From positions 27,646 through 91,645 of the IMG/VR virus record IMGVR_UViG_2895427314_000002: 64,000 bases of DNA, one strand, 5' to 3'. Positions 4,862 to 36,921 of the stretch are shown here, piece by piece (position 1 is the stretch's first letter; every line of letters begins with the position of its first letter). The translations under genes were made by a program, and so were the position numbers. Under the pieces are notes generated by a model. It searched no databases, was not told the origin of the DNA, and was given only the letters and a program-made list of their open reading frames with translations. The DNA is from a virus (Duplodnaviria > Caudoviricetes).

Positions 4862-5322
4862 CCGAGCAGAACATTCCCCAGCCGTACGACCCACTCGCCG
4901 TCTCACACGCCAAGCAGGCCATCACTGCCGCCCTCCACGAAGACGACGACACCACGGCCCAACTCGTCGCCACGATCGTGAACGAGACCGGCCTGCCCGG
5001 CATCCTCGATGCCGTCTTTGTGTGGTGCGCAACCATCCACGCCCGCATCGGGCTCCCGTTCGGCGTCATACTCACCCTCACCTACATCCACCCGGAGACC
5101 GGGGAACCGATCCCCGAGACGGAGGCAGACCCCGCGCTCATCTGGGCCAGCCACGTCATCCAGGCCTACGTGGCCCGCGACAAGCCCCGGTTCGACAGTC
5201 TGCTCAAGGACATGCTGGACGGCGATCCCGGACGGCTCGCCGCCCAGCTCATCACGATGGTCGAGCACGTGGCCGCGCACATCAGGCTCGCCAGCCTGCG
5301 CAGCACAGCGGAGCTGTCGTGA
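4858..5322 (+). CDS. hypothetical protein
   Basis: Coupled ORF. Confidence 0.7.
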   Translation: MTEQNIPQPYDPLAVSHAKQAITAALHEDDDTTAQLVATIVNETGLPGILDAVFVWCATIHARIGLPFGVILTLTYIHPETGEPIPETEADPALIWASHVIQAYVARDKPRFDSLLKDMLDGDPGRLAAQLITMVEHVAAHIRLASLRSTAELS

Positions 5323-7079
5323 CGCACCATGTCGTCCAGATGAGCGGCGGCCTGGGATCGTTCTGGGCCGCCGTCTTCGCCGTCCTGGTATACGGCAAGG
5401 AGAACGTCGTCCTTCTGTTCGCCGACACCCTGTGGGAACACCCCGACACGTACCGCTTCCTAGGGCAGGCCAGCGAACACCTCGACATCACCCCGATCAT
5501 CGTGTGCGACGGCCGCAACCCGTTCCAGGTGTATTTCGACCAGCACTTCCTCGGAAACTCCCGGATCGCGCCGTGCACGAAGGAACTCAAGCAGAAGCCC
5601 TGCCGCCGCTGGCTGGAGGAGCACTGCGACCCGGCCGACACCATCCTGTACGTCGGCCTCGACGCGGCCGAGGAGCGCCGCCGGCCCGGCGTCATCAAGG
5701 GATGGACGCCGTGGCGAGTCGAGTTCCCCCTGATGGACGACAAGACCTGGGACAAGAAGCGGATGAAGACCGAGTGCGCCAAGCTCGGCATCACCATCCC
5801 CCGCATGTACGAACTGGGGTTCTCCCACAACAACTGCTTGCACCCGGACACCCGCTACATCACGAGCGAGGGCATCAAGACCCTCCGCGAGACGTGCGGA
5901 CAGACCGTCAAGGTCCTGGGCCGCGGCGGCGGCTGGCGGGAGGCGGAGATCCGGTCGTTCGGCGAGCAGCCCACTTACGAGCTGCGGCTGCGACGGTACG
6001 ACGACGAGATGACCGTCATCACCACGGGGGACCATCTCTGGCCTGTGCGCAAGCGGGCTGGACGGAACGCCCACGAGTTCCGGCACACGCTCGTGCTCAG
6101 TGCAGGAGACCGCATCGCGGGCATGTATGGCCACGTCCGGAGCAACGTGGTGCCGTCCACGATCGGCATCATGGCCGGGTTCACCTTCGGCGACGGCACC
6201 GCTCCCGCCGTCAACGGGCAGAACCAGCCGGCCCGCGCCTATCTGTGTGGCGACAAGGACAAGGCGATGCTGCCGTACTTCGCGGGCTGCCGGATCAAGG
6301 AGGACAGACCCCGTGTCCTGAAGGTCCTGGACCTGCCGAGGTCGTGGAAGCAACCCCCGCCGCTGGAGGAATCCCAGTCGTACCTGTACGGATGGCTGGC
6401 CGGGTACTTCGCCGCTGACGGCAGCATGAGCGGCGGCAGCGCGGTCATCTACTCGGCGAACCAAGCCCGGCTCGAGACCGTGCAAGATGTGGCGGCCAGG
6501 ATTGGCATCGCGACGGGCCGCATCCGCACCGCGCACCGGACCGGGTACAACACCGAGCGGAGCCCGATCTACAGCGTGACGCTGGTGATGGCCACGCTCC
6601 GGGAGGACTTCTTCCTCCTGCCCCACCACCGGGAGAAGTTCCTCGCCCGCGAGAATCCCCAACGACCAGGTGACTGGCAAGTGGTCGAGGTCGTCCCCAC
6701 CGGGCGTGTCGAGGAGGTCATGTGCGCGGTCGTCCCTGACGGCCACGTGTTCACCCTCGACGGCAACCTGCTCACGCACAACTGCCAGGGCAGCTGTGTC
6801 CGGGCGGGACAGGCTCAGTGGCTTCTCACGCTCCGCGAGTTCCCGGAGCGGTACGCCCTGGCCGAGGCCGAGGAGCAGCGCTTCCGCGAGGAGCACGGCA
6901 AGGACGTGTCGATCCTCACCGAAACCGTGAACGGCGCGAAGTGCACGCTCACGCTCAGGAAGCTGCGGCTGCGCGCGGAGGTGGGCGTGATCCGTCTCCT
7001 CGCGCCTGGATCTGTTCAGCGCCGTCGTCACATGACCGTGAAGACAGAGCCGTTGTTCGAGATGGGGTGCCCGGCATGA
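5319..7079 (+). CDS. PAPS-reductase/PP-loop family protein interrupted by an intein
   Basis: SGGLGS PP-loop, FADTLWE, CTKELK, GFSHNN|CQGSCVRAG. Confidence 0.85.
   Translation: MTHHVVQMSGGLGSFWAAVFAVLVYGKENVVLLFADTLWEHPDTYRFLGQASEHLDITPIIVCDGRNPFQVYFDQHFLGNSRIAPCTKELKQKPCRRWLEEHCDPADTILYVGLDAAEERRRPGVIKGWTPWRVEFPLMDDKTWDKKRMKTECAKLGITIPRMYELGFSHNNCLHPDTRYITSEGIKTLRETCGQTVKVLGRGGGWREAEIRSFGEQPTYELRLRRYDDEMTVITTGDHLWPVRKRAGRNAHEFRHTLVLSAGDRIAGMYGHVRSNVVPSTIGIMAGFTFGDGTAPAVNGQNQPARAYLCGDKDKAMLPYFAGCRIKEDRPRVLKVLDLPRSWKQPPPLEESQSYLYGWLAGYFAADGSMSGGSAVIYSANQARLETVQDVAARIGIATGRIRTAHRTGYNTERSPIYSVTLVMATLREDFFLLPHHREKFLARENPQRPGDWQVVEVVPTGRVEEVMCAVVPDGHVFTLDGNLLTHNCQGSCVRAGQAQWLLTLREFPERYALAEAEEQRFREEHGKDVSILTETVNGAKCTLTLRKLRLRAEVGVIRLLAPGSVQRRRHMTVKTEPLFEMGCPA
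5835..6782 (+). mobile_element. Intein (316 aa) with LAGLIDADG homing endonuclease
   Basis: Starts CLHPDT, TTGDHLW block B, IMAGFTFGDG and WLAGYFAADGS motifs, ends LLTHN followed by Cys. Confidence 0.93.
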
Positions 7080-7252
7080 GGAAGATCGTCACGTGGCTGG
7101 GGCGTGTGGCCAGGTACCGACTCCGCTTCGGCCGCTTCCAGCTCTACATCGAGCCCCGCGACCTGTGGCGCGGGCTCTACATCGGCAAGGACGCGATCTA
7201 CTACTGCCCCTTGCCCACGCTCGTCTTCCGCTGGGCGAGGAGGCCGCGGTGA
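7076..7252 (+). CDS. small aromatic-rich hypothetical protein
   Basis: ATGA and GTGA coupling. Confidence 0.6.
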   Translation: MRKIVTWLGRVARYRLRFGRFQLYIEPRDLWRGLYIGKDAIYYCPLPTLVFRWARRPR

Positions 7253-8046
7253 ACACGACCATGCTGTACGAGGCGCTCGAACGCCACTACCGCAAGCCCG
7301 GCGCTGCCCATCAGGGCGAGATCCTGATCCGCGAGGTTCCCGCCCCCGGCAGCGGTCGGCAGGCGGACCTGATCCGGATCGGGCTCTGGCCATCACGCGG
7401 GTACGCGCTCGACGTCCACGAGCTCAAGGTGACCCGCGCGGACTGGCTACGCGAACTCGCCGACCCGGGCAAGGCCGACGCCTGGTGGCCGCACTGCTCC
7501 CGCTTCTGGGTCGTCGCTCCGGCCGGGGTCGTCCACACGAACGAGCTGCCGCCCGGGTGGGGATTGCTGCAGCCGCCCACGTCCGTGAACCGCCGCCGGT
7601 TCACCACCGTCGTGGACGCGGCGGTGAAGGAGCCCCAGCTCTCGTTGGAGCTGCTCGCCACCTTGGCCAGGCGGACCGACAACACCCGCCTGGCCGAGAT
7701 GGACCTACTGCGTGAGCAGCACCGCGACGCACTCTATAAGGCCCGCACCGAGGCCCGGCAGCACGCAGCGCAGACCGGCCTGGGCGAGTACGTGCGCCGC
7801 CGCCTGAACCTCCTGGACGAGCTGGAGAAACTGCTCGGCGCGACGCTCGACGACTTCGGATGGGGTGACGGTACCCGCCTGGACCGGATGACCCCGTACG
7901 AGCTGGCGTCGGCGCTGGCCGACTGCCGTGACCACATCCGGCTGCAGCAGCGGCAGGCTCGCGTGGAGGAGCTGATGGGCCGCCTGTCGTACGCGGCGCA
8001 GAACGTCATGACCGAGATGCGGAAGGTGGGAAACGGCAATGGGTGA
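7249..8046 (+). CDS. PD-(D/E)XK nuclease-like protein (MmcB-like)
   Basis: ADLI...HELKVTRADWLREL..PGK...FWVVAP. Confidence 0.75.
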   Translation: MNTTMLYEALERHYRKPGAAHQGEILIREVPAPGSGRQADLIRIGLWPSRGYALDVHELKVTRADWLRELADPGKADAWWPHCSRFWVVAPAGVVHTNELPPGWGLLQPPTSVNRRRFTTVVDAAVKEPQLSLELLATLARRTDNTRLAEMDLLREQHRDALYKARTEARQHAAQTGLGEYVRRRLNLLDELEKLLGATLDDFGWGDGTRLDRMTPYELASALADCRDHIRLQQRQARVEELMGRLSYAAQNVMTEMRKVGNGNG

Positions 8047-9040
8047 CTGGCGCACGGACACTGAACGGGCCCAGCTCGCGCTCATGGTGATCGGCCCCGA
8101 CCGGCGGGAACGCCTCATCACCAACTACGCGGACAGGCTGTCCCTGACCCACGGCATGACCGCCGCAGCGGCCCGGCGCTACGCCACCGAGTTGGTGGAC
8201 GACGCCGACTCCGGCGCCGTCCTCCGCATCGGGCAGACCTGGACACAGCGCGACGGCGAGTCCCTACCTGGTGCCGAGCACTTAAGAGCCCTGGTGAGAG
8301 ACGTGGCCGAGAAGTCCGTCACTGTGGTCGGGTTTACCGACGACGGCCTCGTGTCGGTCGGCGATGGCGACCTCCACCTGGGGCCGCACCTGTTCGACCG
8401 CATGTGGCTGACCGCGTGGCCGCCCGAGCACACGCTCATCGAGGAGCCACAGCCGCCGCAGGCCGCACTCGCTCCACCGGAGGAGGAGGTGACCGGCGAC
8501 GGCGACGCGGAGCGGTTCGACCCGAACCATCTGTGGGTCATGGCGCACCGGGCCAGCAAGGACGGCCTGCCGCGCGGCGAGGGCCTGCCGCTGCTCGGCG
8601 ACGACTACCAGGCCGTGAACTGGCGCAAACCCGAGTACGAGCCGTCCTACGGCAACGTCATCGACATCCCCGCCTACCTGAACAAGTACCTGGCCGACTA
8701 TCGGGCTGGCTGGCCCGAATTCCGCGCCCAGTTCCAGCATCAGCGCGGCGCCAACGTGCTGACGTACTTCAACACGCTCGGCTCGTGCGAGTGCGACAGC
8801 GCCGTCGCCGCCTACCTCGGCCACTGGCTGTGGCAGCGGGCTCGCGCCGACGTCGTCACCCAGTACGGCGGCACCGTGGACGACTACGACGTGATGTTCA
8901 TGTGGGGGCCGTTCATGGCCGACGCCGTGCTGGAGGCCGCTCCGTACGCGCACCCCGAGTGGCCGATCCCCGCCGATCACCCGCTGGCTCGGTGTGACGG
9001 CCAGGCCGACCTCTTCAGCGAAGGCGGGGAGCATGGCTGA
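8039..9040 (+). CDS. hypothetical protein
   Basis: 333-aa ORF coupled in operon. Confidence 0.75.
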   Translation: MGDWRTDTERAQLALMVIGPDRRERLITNYADRLSLTHGMTAAAARRYATELVDDADSGAVLRIGQTWTQRDGESLPGAEHLRALVRDVAEKSVTVVGFTDDGLVSVGDGDLHLGPHLFDRMWLTAWPPEHTLIEEPQPPQAALAPPEEEVTGDGDAERFDPNHLWVMAHRASKDGLPRGEGLPLLGDDYQAVNWRKPEYEPSYGNVIDIPAYLNKYLADYRAGWPEFRAQFQHQRGANVLTYFNTLGSCECDSAVAAYLGHWLWQRARADVVTQYGGTVDDYDVMFMWGPFMADAVLEAAPYAHPEWPIPADHPLARCDGQADLFSEGGEHG

Positions 9041-29386: not shown

Positions 29387-29404
29387 GCTGGCGGTTCCGC
29401 AAAC
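29387..29404. promoter_or_regulatory. 18-bp palindrome copy GCTGGCGGTTCCGCAAAC
   Basis: Two mismatches; intergenic. Confidence 0.6.
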
Positions 29405-29534
29405 GGCCAGGCATGCGCGGAATGCTCATTATGGAGGCCGCTCGCGGCCTGACTGACCTGGTCTGATGGCCAGCGTCGCTCGCGAGGTGAGGCGCTGAGA
29501 TTCGCTCTCAGCGCCTCCCTGGCTCACGACAAGA

Positions 29535-29735
29535 TCACACTACGTTCGGATGCCGGGGATACTTGACGTACGGGGGCCGGACGGACGAAATCTCGACCAT
29601 CGGGCCGGTCATGCCGGACCTGACCGTGCCATCGCCATATGGATCCGGCATGGGCCGGGCGTCCTGGGCGAGCGCGGACGTTGCGGTGATCAGTAGCGCT
29701 CCACCAGTCAGCAGCGTGACGAGCAGTTTCTTCAT
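29535..29735 (-). CDS. small secreted peptide
   Basis: MKKLLVTLL...ALA signal peptide plus 43-aa mature part. Confidence 0.7.
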   Translation of the reverse strand: MKKLLVTLLTGGALLITATSALAQDARPMPDPYGDGTVRSGMTGPMVEISSVRPPYVKYPRHPNVV

Positions 29736-29889
29736 GCAGTCCCCCGGTGCGTGAGGAGTTCGCCTTCGATAGTGCGGTGGTCTGCCCTGATTCGTGTGCG
29801 AACGCTGAACGGATCACCGCTGGTATTGGCTCCTGCTGGATCCGGCGGGCCACTATCGCGCCATCACATTGATCGATCTGGAGGCACTG

Positions 29890-30504
29890 GTGCGTCGTAT
29901 CGAGTACATGCCCCTCCCCGAGATCGTGCGGGCCGTCCGGAATCCCAAGGAGCACGATCTCGGCTCCATCAGGAAGTCGATCGAGAAGTTTGGCTGCACG
30001 GTCGCGGGCGAGCTGGACGAGCGGACCGGCCGCCTCGTCGCCGGGCACGGGCGGCTGCTCGTGCTGGAGGCGATGGCCGGCGAGGGCAAGTCGCCGCCCG
30101 AGGGCGTCAAGGTCGGCGACGACGGCGTGTGGCTGGCGCCCATCGTGCGCGGCTGGTCCTCCCGTTCCGACGCGGATGCGGAAGCGTACCTCGTGGCCAA
30201 CAACTCGACGTCCGAGCGCGGCGGGTGGGACCGCGGCGCTCTGGCCGACATGCTGGCCGACATCTTCCAGGCCGACGAGGAGCTGCTGGCCGCGACCGGC
30301 TACAACCCCACCGACATCGAGGACCTGGTGCCCGCCGACCTCGGGGACGCGCCGCCCGCGCCGGTGCCAACGCCGGGGCCGGCCGAGCGCGTCGAGCCGC
30401 CGGACGTGTGGGGCGTCATCATCACCTGCAACAGCGAGGAGGAGCAGGTCGAACTTCTGGAGCGGCTGGCCGCCGAAGGCCGCTCTGTCCGAGCCCTCAT
30501 GTAG
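29890..30504 (+). CDS. ParB/Srx-like N-terminal domain protein
   Basis: RNPK.HD...SIEKFG...LVAGHGRL...YLVANN...GGWD; GGAGG RBS. Confidence 0.85.
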   Translation: MRRIEYMPLPEIVRAVRNPKEHDLGSIRKSIEKFGCTVAGELDERTGRLVAGHGRLLVLEAMAGEGKSPPEGVKVGDDGVWLAPIVRGWSSRSDADAEAYLVANNSTSERGGWDRGALADMLADIFQADEELLAATGYNPTDIEDLVPADLGDAPPAPVPTPGPAERVEPPDVWGVIITCNSEEEQVELLERLAAEGRSVRALM

Positions 30505-31774
30505 GCCCATCACCTGCCCGTCCAGTGCGCAGCGTAGGCTCCGCGCCTGACTGCTCCTTCGCTGTACTCGTGGCGGGCAGATCGCCAAGTCTCAGTAGGG
30601 CGCCAGCAGGCCCGCTCACCAGTCGCCAGCCCGGTGGCCACGTATGCATCCCCTCAACCTGCGTCACGCGGGCCCCGCCCAGATCGACGCATGCACCCTG
30701 CGTGTTCTCGAACGAGACATCGCTGGCGAAGGTTGCGGCGCCGAACCAAGCTCTGCCCGTGAAGCTCGCTCCGTCGAAGCGCGCATCGCCGGCGAAGGTT
30801 GCGGCATCGAACCAAGCTCTGCCCGTGAACTTCGCTCCGTCGAACCAGACATGATGGGTGAACATTGTCCCGTTGAACAACGCGTTGCTGGCGAACGTCG
30901 CCCCAGTGAACCAGGCGTCGCCGGTGAATCTGGCCTGTTCGAACCAGGCGCGTCCGGTGAAGGTAGCCGTGACGAACAAGGCGTCGCCGACAAAGGTAGC
31001 CCCATCGAGATCGATGTGATGAGCATGGCAGCCAATGAAGTCGAAGTCGAGCAAGGTGGCATCAGTCAGGTCGAGCCGGATTCCTGGCCAGAAGAGAGGG
31101 TTTACGGCGATAGAGCGTTTCCACCAGCGGCGTTTGCTCCAACGTAGGTGATCGGCCAGCAGGCGTTGGGCGGTCAGCCGAATTTGACGTTCTTCGTCAG
31201 TGCTTCGGCCAGTTCGTGTCGTGGTACGGCTTGTAAGCCCAGTGCGCGCGGTTCGCTGGGCGGTGCGGATCCTCTGCTGCTGGTCGGCCTCGCGCTGCGG
31301 TGTCCATGGCATCCGCAAGTAGGAGCAGATCACGTCCACAACCCTTTGCCGTAACTCGGGATTGTCTTGCGCGAGTTGTTCGAGGGCATACAGGCCGCCG
31401 AGTCGGATGGGAGCTTGGTCGCTGCCGAGTTGCTCCACCGCATTGCTGAACCGGTCTACGTCAAGCCCTCGTTCGCTGAGTCGGAAGGTTCGCCGGGCCG
31501 TGTCAGCATTGCGGGCGGTGTAGAACACGGCCAGCAGTGCGGCCAGGCCAGTGGCCATCGCCAGAACATTCCCTCGTACGGCAGAGACGGCGGCGGCCCA
31601 GTCTTTACCGGTCAGCTCGTTTGGTGGCAAGGATGCTGGTGGCCGAACGTCATCGTTGAGAGTGATCCCGTCAACGTTTCGCAGCACCCATATGGCGCCC
31701 GGACCGAGCATCCATGTCAACGTCAGCACAGCAATGGGCGCCAGCATGACGACGATGATCGAGGAAGGTTTCAC
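30497..31774 (-). CDS. membrane-anchored pentapeptide-repeat protein (moron 1)
   Basis: 2 TM, RFSNAVEQLGS...RLGGLYALEQLAQD, then A(T/R)F.G.AWF repeats. Confidence 0.88.
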   Translation of the reverse strand: MKPSSIIVVMLAPIAVLTLTWMLGPGAIWVLRNVDGITLNDDVRPPASLPPNELTGKDWAAAVSAVRGNVLAMATGLAALLAVFYTARNADTARRTFRLSERGLDVDRFSNAVEQLGSDQAPIRLGGLYALEQLAQDNPELRQRVVDVICSYLRMPWTPQREADQQQRIRTAQRTARTGLTSRTTTRTGRSTDEERQIRLTAQRLLADHLRWSKRRWWKRSIAVNPLFWPGIRLDLTDATLLDFDFIGCHAHHIDLDGATFVGDALFVTATFTGRAWFEQARFTGDAWFTGATFASNALFNGTMFTHHVWFDGAKFTGRAWFDAATFAGDARFDGASFTGRAWFGAATFASDVSFENTQGACVDLGGARVTQVEGMHTWPPGWRLVSGPAGALLRLGDLPATSTAKEQSGAEPTLRTGRAGDGPT

Positions 31775-31885
31775 CGTCAGAAATACCGCTTCGTGCTTGC
31801 CGCGCCCATGAATCTGATGATGCCCCGACAGCCTGCCGTGCGGACGCTCAGTGATGGGATCGTAACTCGGAATGAGGAGGCGCTC

Positions 31886-32986
31886 GTGCGCGCGGACATC
31901 ACGCTCGCCACCCCCGTCCACCGCACCGCCCGCGTCCTCCAGTTGCAGGGCTTGTTCGACGTGCCGCTGGAGGAGAAGCTGACGAACTCCTGGCAGGTGA
32001 ACCTGCCCGTCGAGGACCGCCGGTGGAACGTCGGCCTGCTCGTCGGCCCGTCCGGGTCCGGGAAGTCCACCATCGCGAACGAGCTTTGGCCCGGCCGGCT
32101 CGTCCGGGATCACCCCTGGGGGGATCGGGCGCTCGTGGACGACTTCCCGCCGGGAATGGGCATCAAGGACATCGTCGGCCTGCTGACCGCCGTGGGACTC
32201 TCGAGCCCACCCGCGTGGCTCCGGCCGTACAAGACGCTGTCCAACGGGGAGGCGTTCCGCGCGTCCATGGCCCGCGCCCTCGCCGAGCACCAGGGCCTGC
32301 TCGTCGTGGACGAGTTCACCAGCGTGGTGGACCGGCAGGTCGCCAAGGTCGCGTCGCACGCGGTCGCGAAGTCCGTTCGCCGCGCCGGGCGGCAGCTCGT
32401 CGCGGTCACCTGCCACTACGACGTGACAGACTGGCTGCAACCGGACTGGATCTACGACCTGGCGGCGGGCTCGTTCGCGTGGAGGTCGGTTCAACCCCGG
32501 CCAGCCGTCCAGCTTGACATCCACGCGGCCGACCGGTCCTTGTGGAGCCTGTTTCGCCACCATCACTATCTGAGCAGCGACATCAGCAACGCCGCGCAAT
32601 GCTTCGCCGGGTGCATCGACGGCAAACCGGTAGCTTTCGCTGCCTACAGGCACTTCCAGCATCCGAAGGTGCGTGACATCAAACTCGGTCACCGCCTGGT
32701 GGTGCTGCCGGACTTCCAAGGACTGTCGATCGGCGGGCACCTGGAGGACTGGATCGGCCAGCACCTGCATGCGCAGGGGTTCCGGTACCGGAATGTGACG
32801 TCGCACCCGGCGTTGATCGCCTACATGGAGCGCAGCCCGCGGTGGCAGAGGCAGGGCCGCGCCACCAAGCTCCACACCAGCAGCAAGCGGCGGAACCAGC
32901 ACGCCAACACTCTGGACCCGCGCCGGCTCGGGCTCGTCTCATTCGAGTACGTTCCGCCCGCGCGGCCGAGCCGCCCGGTCAGGTGA
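31886..32986 (+). CDS. ABC-type ATPase fused to a GNAT (Mom-like) acyltransferase
   Basis: GPSGSGKST, LSNGE, VVDEFTSVVDR; then F.HHHYL and RLVVLPDFQGLSIG acetyl-CoA motif. Confidence 0.88.
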   Translation: MRADITLATPVHRTARVLQLQGLFDVPLEEKLTNSWQVNLPVEDRRWNVGLLVGPSGSGKSTIANELWPGRLVRDHPWGDRALVDDFPPGMGIKDIVGLLTAVGLSSPPAWLRPYKTLSNGEAFRASMARALAEHQGLLVVDEFTSVVDRQVAKVASHAVAKSVRRAGRQLVAVTCHYDVTDWLQPDWIYDLAAGSFAWRSVQPRPAVQLDIHAADRSLWSLFRHHHYLSSDISNAAQCFAGCIDGKPVAFAAYRHFQHPKVRDIKLGHRLVVLPDFQGLSIGGHLEDWIGQHLHAQGFRYRNVTSHPALIAYMERSPRWQRQGRATKLHTSSKRRNQHANTLDPRRLGLVSFEYVPPARPSRPVR

Positions 32987-33245
32987 GCTTGCTCCGCAGG
33001 CTGGCCAGTGCCTCGTCCGGGGTGTCGCCGACGCCGATCATGCCGCCGTGCTCCTTCCACCAGCCGTACGCAACCCGGTCGTCCGCGAAGGCGTCTTGAG
33101 GCACGTCCCACGGCTCCGTCAGGAACGCGGCAAAGGTGCCGCCCTCGTAGCTGCCGCTGTAGCGCGTCTTGACGATCGTCACCGGGTACAGCGGGTCGAT
33201 GCCTTCGGGGAAGACGCGGTTCAGGGGGCGGGGCAGGTCGGTCAC
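32979..33245 (-). CDS. hypothetical protein
   Basis: RYSGSYEGG...GDTPDEALASL. Confidence 0.7.
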   Translation of the reverse strand: MTDLPRPLNRVFPEGIDPLYPVTIVKTRYSGSYEGGTFAAFLTEPWDVPQDAFADDRVAYGWWKEHGGMIGVGDTPDEALASLRSKLT

Positions 33246-33389
33246 GCCGTCATTGTTCCAGCATCACAGCCGAAACGGGTCGGACATCGGTCGCCGCGTC
33301 CGTGTTCGTCATGCCGCCATGCTCGCATCCGCCGCCCCAGCGCGCTTCAGATTCCTCGTCCTCTGCCAACAACCTCGCAGAACGGAGAG

Positions 33390-34490
33390 ATGACCATGGC
33401 CGTCGAGCAGCCGACCGGCATGCGGCGAACGCTGGGGCTGGTGGTTGCCGCTGCCGCGCTCCTCGCCAGCGCGGTCGCGCAGCCGCCCGCAGCCGCAGCT
33501 TCCACGGACGGGGTAGCCGTCCACAAGGACATCGCCTACGCACCCGCGCAACCTGAGGGCAGCCGCGGTCACCTGCTCGACCTGTACGTGCCGACCCAGG
33601 CACACCGTGCGCTGAGACCGGTTCTGATCGTGACGGGCGGCAGCGCCTGGCGTAGGGACGATGGCAAAGAGTGGGCGGCCCAGATCGCGCCGCGGTTCAC
33701 CGCAGCGGGCTACGTGGTCGCTGGCGTCAGCGTCCGCTCCAGTGAGCAGGCGGTCTTCCCGGCCCAGGTGCATGATGCCAAGGCAGCGGTCAGGTGGCTC
33801 CGGGCGAACGCGGCCACATACCGGCTCGACCCGAACCGGTTCGCGATGATGGGGGACTCCTCCGGCGCTTGGGCGAGCGCCATGGTGGCGGTCACGGGCG
33901 ACGTACCTGCGCTGGAAGGAGCGGTGGGTGTCACCGGCGTGTCCAGCGCGGTGCAGGCAGCGGTGGATGTGTACTCGCCGACCGACTTCCTGACGATGAA
34001 CGCGCAGATGCTTCCGGGGGCCTGCCAGACGTTCAACGCGCAGATGGGAGTGACGGACTGCCATGATGACCCGGGCTCTCCCGAGTCGCAGCTCATCGGC
34101 TGCGCCATTCAGACCTGTCCGGCTCGCGCTCGCGCGGCCAACCCGATCACGTACGTCTCTCGCGGCGACCCGCCGATCCTCATCGTGCACGGCCAGGCGG
34201 ACACGCTCGTTCCTCACGGCCAGAGCTGGCTGCTGTACCGCGCGCTGGAGCGCGCCTGCGTGACCGCCACGTTCTACTCTGTGCCGGGCGTTGGCCACTC
34301 CACTGCCATCCTGCGGCCGGATGTCACCAAGCCCGCTGCGCATGCGACGTCGCGCTGCCGACCCCAGCCAGTGAAGCGGCTGGAGCGTCGGCCGACGCTC
34401 GACACCATCGGCGCGTTCATCGAACGCGCCTGGCACCGCACCCGATGCAGGCCGCCGTCGCCCAGCGCGGCAGCAGGAACGGAGAACTGA
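33390..34490 (+). CDS. secreted alpha/beta hydrolase (HSL-type esterase/lipase)
   Basis: Signal peptide; LDLY.P, GDSSG nucleophile, HGQADTLVP, GVGH. Confidence 0.9.
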   Translation: MTMAVEQPTGMRRTLGLVVAAAALLASAVAQPPAAAASTDGVAVHKDIAYAPAQPEGSRGHLLDLYVPTQAHRALRPVLIVTGGSAWRRDDGKEWAAQIAPRFTAAGYVVAGVSVRSSEQAVFPAQVHDAKAAVRWLRANAATYRLDPNRFAMMGDSSGAWASAMVAVTGDVPALEGAVGVTGVSSAVQAAVDVYSPTDFLTMNAQMLPGACQTFNAQMGVTDCHDDPGSPESQLIGCAIQTCPARARAANPITYVSRGDPPILIVHGQADTLVPHGQSWLLYRALERACVTATFYSVPGVGHSTAILRPDVTKPAAHATSRCRPQPVKRLERRPTLDTIGAFIERAWHRTRCRPPSPSAAAGTEN

Positions 34491-35125: not shown

Positions 35126-35632
35126 GTGGCCGACGACAAGCGGAAGCTCGAACTCGCCCAGCGCCGCAACCAGGCGCTCCAGATGCGGATCGCCGGCGTC
35201 TCGCCCACGCTGATCGCTGAGCGGCTGGGGTACAACAGCCCGCAGGCTGCGTCCGGGGACATCACTGCCGCGCTGAAGCGGGCCGCGAAGGTGGAGGGGC
35301 TCGCCGCCGAGCATCTGCTGCATCTGGAGTTGTCCCGGCTGGATAGGATGCTGGCCGCGCTGTGGCCGAAGGTGCTCAAGGGCGAGGTACAGGCGGCGGA
35401 AGTCTGCCACAAAATCATTAAGACCCGGGCGTCGCTGACCGGCGTGTCCGAGCTGAACCGCCACGGTGCCCCGGACAACGACATGGCGTCGCTGCTCGGC
35501 GCGATGCTGGCCCAGCTCCAGCAGCGTTACCAGGTGCCCGACCCGGACCTTGACGCCATCGCCTCGGCCGACGTGCAGGCCGACGTTGTCACGGGCGAAG
35601 TGCTGTGGGACGACGCCGGCGGCGAGGCATGA
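35126..35632 (+). CDS. terS: terminase small subunit
   Basis: N-terminal HTH (IAERLGY), ELSRLD, directly upstream of terL. Confidence 0.8.
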   Translation: MADDKRKLELAQRRNQALQMRIAGVSPTLIAERLGYNSPQAASGDITAALKRAAKVEGLAAEHLLHLELSRLDRMLAALWPKVLKGEVQAAEVCHKIIKTRASLTGVSELNRHGAPDNDMASLLGAMLAQLQQRYQVPDPDLDAIASADVQADVVTGEVLWDDAGGEA

Positions 35633-36921
35633 CCGAGGCGCTCGGGCTGGCGGTGCGGCTGTCGCCCAAGCAGGAACGGTCGATCGCCGAATCGACGGCA
35701 CGCCTGAACATCTGGCAGGGGGCTATCCGAAGCGGGAAGACGATCGCTTCGCTGCTGCGCTGGCTGGCGTTCGTCGCGAACGCGCCGCGCGGCGGATCCC
35801 TTATCGTCGTCGGCAAGACCGCCGACACGATCAGCCGGAATATCTTCGACCCGCTCATGGACGCAGCGATCACAGGGCCGCTCGCGGCGCGGATCTCCTA
35901 CACCAGGGGTGCCCCCACGGCGACGATCCTGGGCCGCAAGGTGGAGATCATCTCATGCGCGGACGCCCGCGCCGAGACCCGGCTGCGCGGCATGACCGGC
36001 GTCGGCGCGTACGTGGATGAGATCACGCTGATTGAGCGGCCGTTCTGGGACATGCTCCTGTCGAGGTTGAGCGTGCCGGGCGCGAAACTCTTCGGGAGCA
36101 CGAACCCCGACAGCCCTTCCCACTGGCTGAAGCGCGACTTCCTCGACCGGGCCGGCGAGCTCGACCTGCGGTCGTGGCACTTCAGGTTGGACGACAACCA
36201 CGCCCTGGACGCCGCGTACGTGGCCGCGCTCAAGAAGGAGTACACCGGGCTCTGGTACAAGAGATTCGTCCTCGGGGCGTGGGTGATGGCCGAGGGCGCG
36301 ATCTTCGACATGTGGGACGAAGACCGCCACATGGTCACCAGCCTGCCACTGATGGAGAAGTGGCTCGCGCTCGGCATCGACTACGGCACCGCTAATCCGT
36401 TCGACGCCGTGCTCGTCGGCGTGTCCGTCCCCGACGCCCACGGCCAGCGGCGCATCTACGTCACCAACGAGTGGCGGTGGGACTCCCGCCAGCAGCGCCG
36501 CCAGCTCACCGACGCCGAGTACAGCGTGCGGCTGGCCGACTGGCTCGACGCCATCCCCGACACCTACGGCCCCGGCACGCGCGGGGTCCGACCGGCGTGG
36601 CTGATCGTGGACCCCAGCGCGGCCTCGTTCGTGACCCAGCTCCACCACGACGGGTTCCGCCCCCAGCAGGGCGACAACTCCGTCCTGGACGGGATCAGGA
36701 CCGTGTCCAACCTGATGGCTGCCGACCACCTCCGCGTCCACGCCTCCTGCCGCGACCTGCTGGACGAGATCGTCGGCTACGCCTGGGACGACAAGAAGGC
36801 CGCCGCGGGCGAGGACGCCCCCGTCAAGGAGCACGACCACTCCGTGGACGCCCTCCGGTACGCCCTCCACACCACGCAGGCGGTGTGGATGCGGCTGCTC
36901 GAACCCGTGCCTGCCTATTAG
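35629..36921 (+). CDS. terL: terminase large subunit (PBSX-like)
   Basis: GAIRSGKT, YVDE, STNPD, GIDYG, DHSVDALRY. Confidence 0.96.
   Translation: MTEALGLAVRLSPKQERSIAESTARLNIWQGAIRSGKTIASLLRWLAFVANAPRGGSLIVVGKTADTISRNIFDPLMDAAITGPLAARISYTRGAPTATILGRKVEIISCADARAETRLRGMTGVGAYVDEITLIERPFWDMLLSRLSVPGAKLFGSTNPDSPSHWLKRDFLDRAGELDLRSWHFRLDDNHALDAAYVAALKKEYTGLWYKRFVLGAWVMAEGAIFDMWDEDRHMVTSLPLMEKWLALGIDYGTANPFDAVLVGVSVPDAHGQRRIYVTNEWRWDSRQQRRQLTDAEYSVRLADWLDAIPDTYGPGTRGVRPAWLIVDPSAASFVTQLHHDGFRPQQGDNSVLDGIRTVSNLMAADHLRVHASCRDLLDEIVGYAWDDKKAAAGEDAPVKEHDHSVDALRYALHTTQAVWMRLLEPVPAY

Follow-up and report, generated by a model that had tools for sequence, protein, structure and literature searches.

The DNA analysed here, called the window below, is the right-hand 64 kb of the 91.6-kb provirus record IMGVR_UViG_2895427314_000002 (CheckV completeness 93%). 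It carries a gene for a ParB-like protein and a gene for an ABC ATPase fused to a GNAT acyltransferase (ABC-GNAT), which together are almost certainly an intact copy of a widespread phage module, that of PHROGs family phrog_11143. The nearest relatives of the provirus proteins are from Nonomuraea, and megablast against 50,697 phage records matched no near-identical phage DNA. Between 29.8 and 37 kb, the plus strand encodes in turn the ParB-like protein, ABC-GNAT, a secreted BD-FAE esterase, a protein of 125 amino acids (aa), a small-terminase-like protein and the large terminase, with the terminase genes 2.1 kb downstream of the module. An antisense gene (a moron) for a pentapeptide-repeat membrane protein separates the ParB-like and ABC-GNAT genes (Table 1). 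Open reading frames (ORFs) and domains were assigned by profile searches against Pfam and PHROGs, in which the E-values of the matches were far beyond chance expectation. A preliminary description of this DNA had reported the same gene content, namely a ParB/Srx-type protein lacking a helix-turn-helix (HTH), an antisense moron, a soluble ABC ATPase-GNAT fusion and no permease. Our analysis bears out this gene content and detected no HTH family in the ParB-like protein.

Table 1. Features of the ParB-like/ABC-GNAT locus (window positions), with frame breaks in related loci (positions in those loci)
Feature	Position	Strand	Details
ParB-like gene	29890-30504	+	204 aa; GTG start, GGAGG 6 nt upstream; phrog_620
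ParB/Srx-fold N-terminal domain and three short helices	29890-30327	+	NPKEHD, GHGR, NN.T.E motifs
Pro-rich linker of ParB-like protein	30328-30402	+	pLDDT 66-76, without secondary structure; length differs among homologues
33-aa beta-alpha-beta tail and stop codon	30403-30504	+	WGVIITCNSEEEQVELLERLAAEGRSVRALM; conserved C-terminus of ParB-like partners
Antisense pentapeptide-repeat membrane protein gene (moron)	30497-31774	-	PF13576 (Pentapeptide_3) E 1.8e-19; N-terminal hydrophobic segment
Divergent intergenic region, 111 bp	31775-31885	.	Ribosome-binding site GAGGAGG at 31873-31879; sequence reading
ABC-GNAT gene	31886-32986	+	366 aa; GTG start, GAGGAGG 6 nt upstream; phrog_11143
ABC nucleotide-binding domain, aa 1-202	31886-32491	+	Walker A GPSGSGKST, signature LSNGE, Walker B LLVVDE, H-loop CH
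GNAT acyltransferase domain, aa 207-358, with short C-terminal tail and stop	32504-32986	+	FRHHHYL, RLVVLPDFQGLSIG
Secreted BD-FAE esterase	about 33380-34490	+	
Small-terminase-like (35126-35632) and large terminase (35605-36921)	35126-35632; 35605-36921	+	phrog_645 E 4.6e-23; Terminase_6N/6C; phrog_2 E 1.8e-44
ABC/GNAT frame breaks	L047:5559-5666, L048:4560-4663, L044:6579-6687, L045:6564-6669, L043:6503-6579		Breaks at homopolymers T5, A10, A6, T9

The ABC-GNAT protein matches phrog_11143, a family of unknown function, over profile positions 3-349 of 357 (E 3.1e-98), and it is 96% identical to its nearest relative and 61% identical to gp86 of phage Jace. A longer product of 539 aa, read from a start at 31367, was rejected as an over-extension because GTG 31886 sits 6 nt after a GGAGG-type ribosome-binding site; the length of the resulting 366-aa product agrees with that of the family. 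Pfam recognises ABC_tran, Acetyltransf_1 (E 8.6e-7) and Acetyltransf_7 (E 7.2e-7). Conservation was scored, and an AlphaFold2 (AF2) model with a predicted local distance difference test (pLDDT) of 93.9 was built, on 91 homologues. Across these, S56, G57, G59, K60, L118, S119, G121, D142 and E143 of the ABC half are invariant and H177 nearly so. The GNAT half carries both motifs quoted in the preliminary description, FRHHHYL at aa 223-229 and RLVVLPDFQGLSIG at aa 270-283. Its residues H227, Y228 and W320 are invariant and R270, Q278, G279 and G281 nearly invariant; the HHYL motif is fixed, and the Q-G-x-G/S-x-G pyrophosphate loop almost so. Since the ABC motifs and the coenzyme A (CoA) loop of the GNAT are conserved, both halves look catalytically competent, and the donor would most simply be an acyl-CoA. 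Judged from the model, the ABC domain is compact and of transporter type (VIA Z 14-15 to many solved nucleotide-binding domains of that type), and the GNAT is a canonical acyl-CoA enzyme closest to RimI/NAT-like folds. Its closest solved structures (VIA Z 13-14.4) are 1y9k, an IAA acetyltransferase (14.4), 3lod, a putative acyl-CoA N-acyltransferase, RimI 5isv (13.7), Naa50 and Ard1. The module is not a transporter: no ABC membrane-domain (permease) family appears in the Pfam tallies of about 190 neighbouring ORFs from 38 non-redundant module loci, or near the window gene.

The partner protein, whose relatives are also 204 aa long, matches phrog_620, "ParB-like partition protein" (E 2.4e-23); Pfam returned no match for it and no HTH family. 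Its AF2 model (pLDDT 91) was matched by Foldseek to CDP-bound ParB (6sdk_B, E 5e-4, TM 0.48/0.51), then to Noc, KorB and PadC, and further to sulfiredoxin and SbnI, and by this model it has the ParB/Srx fold. Conserved positions among its homologues are N25, G59, H60, R62 and N112, together with an NP(K/R) motif, and the GHGR residues G59, H60 and R62 are nearly invariant. Three short helices (aa 122-153) follow the N-terminal domain in the model and may be a degenerate HTH remnant. Beyond the linker, the protein ends in a 33-aa beta-alpha-beta tail with the consensus h-G-V-h-V-x-C-x-x-E-x-x-Q...G..h-R-h-L. From its distribution, described below, this tail is the best candidate for a physical adaptor between the ParB-like and ABC-GNAT proteins; it could also be a dimerisation element. 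A profile search of the tail against the PDB gave only non-significant matches. The best of these is a resemblance of its motif GV(V/I)VxCxDExxQ to GIVVECQDERSQ, residues 252-265 of RF1 domain 3 (14 residues, E 0.15, non-significant).

Relatives of ABC-GNAT form at least 7,863 clusters at 90% identity, mostly viral, and the 89 phage records that hold one come from many host phyla. We compared the linkage of the two genes in 47 loci, 44 of them on IMG/VR contigs and three in annotated phages. A ParB-like ORF lies directly upstream of ABC-GNAT in most, and either this ORF or a short tail-only ORF ends at the ABC-GNAT start in 42 of the 47. In phage Jace, the genes for gp85 (ParB-like) and gp86 (ABC-GNAT) overlap. 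Single-chain fusions of ParB, tail and ABC-GNAT, with the tail kept, account for 10 of the 150 representatives listed at 50% identity; the N-terminal extensions of these long relatives are not seen by Pfam and were shown to be ParB by a custom hidden Markov model. Because of this upstream ParB or tail ORF, the overlap in Jace and the natural fusions, we regard the ParB-like and ABC-GNAT proteins, on the strength of gene arrangement, as one conserved functional module. The tail is the constant element of the linkage, since loci without ParB hold it as a stand-alone gene of about 55 aa directly upstream of ABC-GNAT, as in Burkholderia phage phiE255 (gp28) and loci L033-L035, L037 and L044.

Several variants of the module were also observed. 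A ParB-less subtype consists of the tail mini-gene, ABC-GNAT and an Fmt-like formyltransferase (phiE255 gp28-gp30, L046:4765-6715; L034, L035, L036 and L044), with no tail mini-gene detected in L036. The phiE255 module follows the tail-fibre genes, the position of com-mom in Mu. The two halves of ABC-GNAT are encoded in separate, overlapping frames in phages of Streptococcus and on several viral contigs (a -1 shift in four loci and +1 in one); these breaks could be explained by a programmed frameshift, by slippage during transcription, by phase variation or by sequencing errors in the homopolymers. In Lactococcus P335 and Oenococcus phages, ABC-GNAT is recovered in two to three tblastn pieces. 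At L030:5831-7190, the GNAT-like part (5857-6519) seems to precede the ABC-like part (6408-7190); the copy may be permuted or rearranged, or the order may be an artefact of assembly. The P0377 scan of viral contigs gave no match.

Sister prophages offer a natural exchange of the enzyme beside ParB. Some close paralogues of the ParB-like protein (53-58% identity) have, in place of the beta-alpha-beta tail, a C-x-x-C tail that resembles a zinc ribbon; they were found at four loci, in three Nonomuraea genomes and one viral contig. In each of these loci the gene next to ParB on its downstream side, or one that follows within about 0.6 kb, encodes a C5 cytosine DNA methyltransferase (PF00145, E 4e-49), and in none was an ABC-GNAT found within 4-5 kb. 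In at least two, the pair occupies the same slot ahead of TerS/TerL, and TerL is 70-75% identical to that of the window. Within one lineage, then, the slot holds either ParB with the beta-alpha-beta tail and ABC-GNAT, or ParB with the zinc ribbon and a DNA methyltransferase. Since the slot alternates between these two pairs, the arrangement is suggestive of a ParB tail that encodes partner specificity and of an ABC-GNAT that fills the role of a DNA-modifying enzyme. At one of the four loci (L051:5001-8900), the zinc-ribbon ParB and C5 DNA methyltransferase genes are followed by genes for an asparagine-synthase-like glutamine amidotransferase and an S-adenosylmethionine methyltransferase-like protein, a candidate cytosine hypermodification cluster by its gene content; L052, L053 and L054 were examined for the methyltransferase only.

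A function for such modules has been proposed before. DNA acylation by a phage GNAT together with an ABC ATPase was predicted by Iyer, Zhang, Burroughs and Aravind (NAR 2013), as far as their work is related in PMC7824862, and the DNA-acylation reading is therefore an already published prediction and not a new inference. DNA-directed, ATP-dependent acyl transfer is also our leading hypothesis, and we give about even chances to the fuller proposal that the module spends ATP to acylate phage DNA and that the resulting mark shields the DNA from restriction or another defence. The ParB/Srx-fold protein, without a recognisable sequence-specific DNA-binding domain, would act as the DNA-engaging activator, and its 33-aa tail would tether it to ABC-GNAT through a predicted contact with the ABC domain. 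Binding of ATP would bring two ABC domains together as a dimer, in which the Walker A of one faces the signature motif of the other, and the dimer might clamp or open the DNA so as to present the target base to the GNAT site, where acyl-CoA would be bound via the conserved pyrophosphate loop. Such an activator has a precedent, since experiments showed that a DNA thymine dioxygenase is activated, specifically on double-stranded DNA (dsDNA), by a phage ParB without a DNA-binding domain (PMC13229309). The recurrence of DNA methylase and ASCH genes beside the module in other phages also speaks for a DNA target; the ASCH fold is that of YqfB, an N4-acetylcytidine amidohydrolase (PMC9599836). A broader version can be put forward only tentatively, and we hold it slightly less probable than not: that the module writes an undescribed acyl mark on phage dsDNA, and that phage proteins of the ParB fold serve in general as interchangeable activators of enzymes that modify DNA, with a short adaptor at the C-terminus fitting each one to its partner (the beta-alpha-beta tail for the ATP-gated ABC-GNAT, the zinc ribbon for the C5 methyltransferase). 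The interpretation first given to this DNA is supported in part, namely in its single module, in acyl transfer that depends on ATP and in DNA as the probable target.

A number of observations weigh against a DNA acyltransferase. The full-text literature searched yielded no experimental study of any member of the module. The solved folds nearest to the GNAT belong to enzymes that acetylate protein N-termini or small molecules (RimI, Naa50, Ard1, IAA acetyltransferase), not to Mom, and the ABC domain is of transporter type and not of the SMC/Rad50/MutS type that usually binds DNA. In the study of Mom, acyl groups on adenine N6 are reported to be unstable by quantum-chemical calculation (PMC13219725). 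The formyltransferase and ASCH neighbours suit an RNA or aminoacyl-tRNA substrate equally well, and the argument from sister prophages comes from one phage lineage and four loci. Finally, the pair is no longer one operon in the provirus, and its co-expression is thus only putative.

These points bear on what else the GNAT might acylate. It could be a protein acetyltransferase directed at a host or phage protein (a takeover target, or a packaging or virion protein), with ParB and its tail as scaffold or substrate. RimI, Naa50, Naa10 and Ard1 are among its best structural matches (Z 13-13.7), modification of host proteins by a phage GNAT has a precedent in Rac (PMC7824862), and the module often heads the late or packaging operon. 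GNAT Z-scores do not separate substrates, however, and the obligate ParB-fold partner, together with its exchange for ParB and a DNA methyltransferase in sister phages, points to DNA; we therefore consider a protein target unlikely, though it deserves some weight.

The genes around the module bear on a second possibility, the acylation of RNA or aminoacyl-tRNA, as carried out by TmcA (N4-acetylcytidine, ac4C, on tRNA) or by GNAT toxins that acylate charged tRNA. TmcA provides a precedent for an ATPase-GNAT protein. In the 38 loci, the downstream genes include the large terminase in about 14, an Fmt-like formyltransferase in five, ASCH in four, DNA methylases in three and CoA-transferase family III in two; the formyltransferase loci are mostly ParB-less (four with a stand-alone tail ORF and one without a detected one). 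Both the ASCH and the formyltransferase neighbours would fit an RNA substrate, and Mom itself links tRNA chemistry to the GNAT fold (PMC13219725). Against an RNA target, the ATPase belongs to the ABC class and not to the TmcA helicase class, with no match to PF13718 or PF05127 in Pfam, and the ParB partner and the methyltransferase swap again favour DNA. No formyltransferase was found in the provirus record, and its ASCH-like match, which lies outside the window (G000:C1:17652-17891), is sub-threshold at 16.2 bits (cut-off 21.2); a C5 DNA methylase-like ORF is also present near the left end of the record (7685-8278). On this balance an RNA target seems distinctly unlikely.

Acetylation of a small molecule (an anti-phage metabolite, a polyamine or an immune signalling nucleotide), gated by the ATPase, finds some encouragement in the top GNAT fold matches, which include 1y9k IAA acetyltransferase, 2bsw glyphosate acetyltransferase and 3pgp PA4794, and in phage Jace, where genes for PanD and a CoA-transferase adjoin the module. 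This explanation leaves the ParB partner and the ABC domain unaccounted for, and the family is spread over phages whose hosts and chemistries differ widely, so we find it improbable. The Jace genes in question (gp87 and gp88, L001:7110-8221) lie directly after ABC-GNAT and encode PanD, which is an aspartate decarboxylase, and a protein resembling CoA-transferase family III; an uncommon acyl-CoA donor, for example beta-alanyl-CoA, could come from their action. A role without any modification, in which ParB and an ATPase motor serve plasmid-prophage partition or pac recognition, accords with the ParB fold, the adjacent ATPase and the nearby terminase, but is very improbable given that the ParB-like protein has no detected HTH or parS-binding domain, that the GNAT catalytic and CoA motifs are strongly conserved and that the module occurs in lytic phages such as T4-like PX29 and Leptospira LE3/LE4 (PMC6078989). 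The Pfam tallies of the ORFs flanking module loci list no ParA-type family.

Returning to the modification of phage DNA, the module is frequently found at the boundary ahead of the packaging genes, and upstream of it lies the replication module, without a constant partner. It stands away from the terminase in phiE255, after the tail fibres, and in PX29. The coupling of modification to packaging, also raised in the preliminary description, thus stays a guess from gene order alone, because the modules of these two phages do not adjoin the terminase.

The antisense insertion is the only peculiarity of the copy in the window. The moron, which starts at GTG 31774 or ATG 31747, parts the two genes by 1.38 kb, and its stop overlaps that of the ParB-like gene by 8 nt. 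A relative 83% identical (L003) has a pentapeptide-repeat gene in the identical slot (L003:4743-5837; 59% aa identity), L002 has a different antisense membrane protein there (5242-5900, minus strand), and L019 shows a gap of similar size; its content was seen as gap length only and is probably a different antisense membrane protein, as in L002. More distant relatives have the junction without an insertion. Since the window and L003 carry a different membrane-protein gene there from that of L002, the ParB/ABC-GNAT junction is a moron slot in this phage lineage, and the genes it takes up may be superinfection-exclusion or defence cargo. Because the moron splits the pair, ABC-GNAT needs a promoter of its own, and the 111-bp divergent spacer must, by this reading of the sequence, hold the promoter or promoters for the moron and ABC-GNAT. 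A promoter and terminator scan of 29400-33500 gave no sites, using a consensus sigma-70 that is uninformative for an actinomycete. An 88-aa antisense ORF (32979-33245, minus strand), without a Pfam or PHROG match, overlaps the GNAT stop by 8 nt. Together with the BD-FAE esterase gene it forms a second variable cargo slot, in which L002, L003 and L019 carry unrelated DNA.

If the published prediction is true, an ATP-driven DNA acyltransferase with a so far undescribed product is encoded by phages in their thousands, and the module would represent a new class of DNA base modification and show ABC ATPases and ParB folds in a new role. To this prospect the present copy alone adds little, but the 33-aa tail, the fusions and the C5 methyltransferase swap provide handles for the choice of constructs and mutants.

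Among known systems, that of Iyer et al., in the form in which PMC7824862 relates it, shares the ABC-GNAT architecture and the viral context, and nothing essential differs apart from the 1.38 kb with the antisense moron that splits the pair here. The ParB-dependent thymine dioxygenases (5mYOX and ParB; O'Toole et al., PNAS 2026, PMC13229309) likewise set a ParB without an obvious DNA-binding domain beside a DNA-modifying enzyme; there the enzyme needs ParB in order to act on dsDNA, and the C-terminal domain of ParB is indispensable. The 5mYOX partner is an Fe(II)/2-oxoglutarate dioxygenase, whereas here it is ABC-GNAT. Canonical ParB, the CTPase clamp of partition, has in common with the ParB-like protein the ParB/Srx nucleotide-binding fold with its GxxR motif. 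SufC, PhnK/PhnL and the MCR-activating A2 component, which are among the fold matches of the ABC domain, are permease-free transporter-like domains that serve as an ATP switch on a soluble partner; unlike ABC-GNAT, none is fused to a GNAT or paired with ParB. TmcA/NAT10 enzymes also join a P-loop ATPase to a GNAT and spend ATP on the acylation of a nucleobase amine. That ATPase is of the helicase class, joined to GNAT_acetyltr_2 and acting on tRNA, whereas the window protein has an ABC ATPase and Acetyltransf_1/_7; membership of the TmcA/NAT10 family was rejected, as Pfam gives ABC_tran and Acetyltransf_1/_7 only. The likeness to Mu Mom, suggested in the preliminary description, is a general one: Mom, too, is a phage protein with a GNAT-superfamily fold; its target is an exocyclic base amine in dsDNA, and the modification gives protection from restriction. 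Membership of the Mom family did not hold up, with no match to PF25680 even at E 10 (Mu Mom control 2.4e-75) and an hhalign probability of 0.35% against Mom. Mom, with catalytic residues R111 and S124, works without an ATPase or ParB partner and takes Gly-tRNA as donor (PMC13219725), whereas the GNAT described here keeps the acyl-CoA loop.

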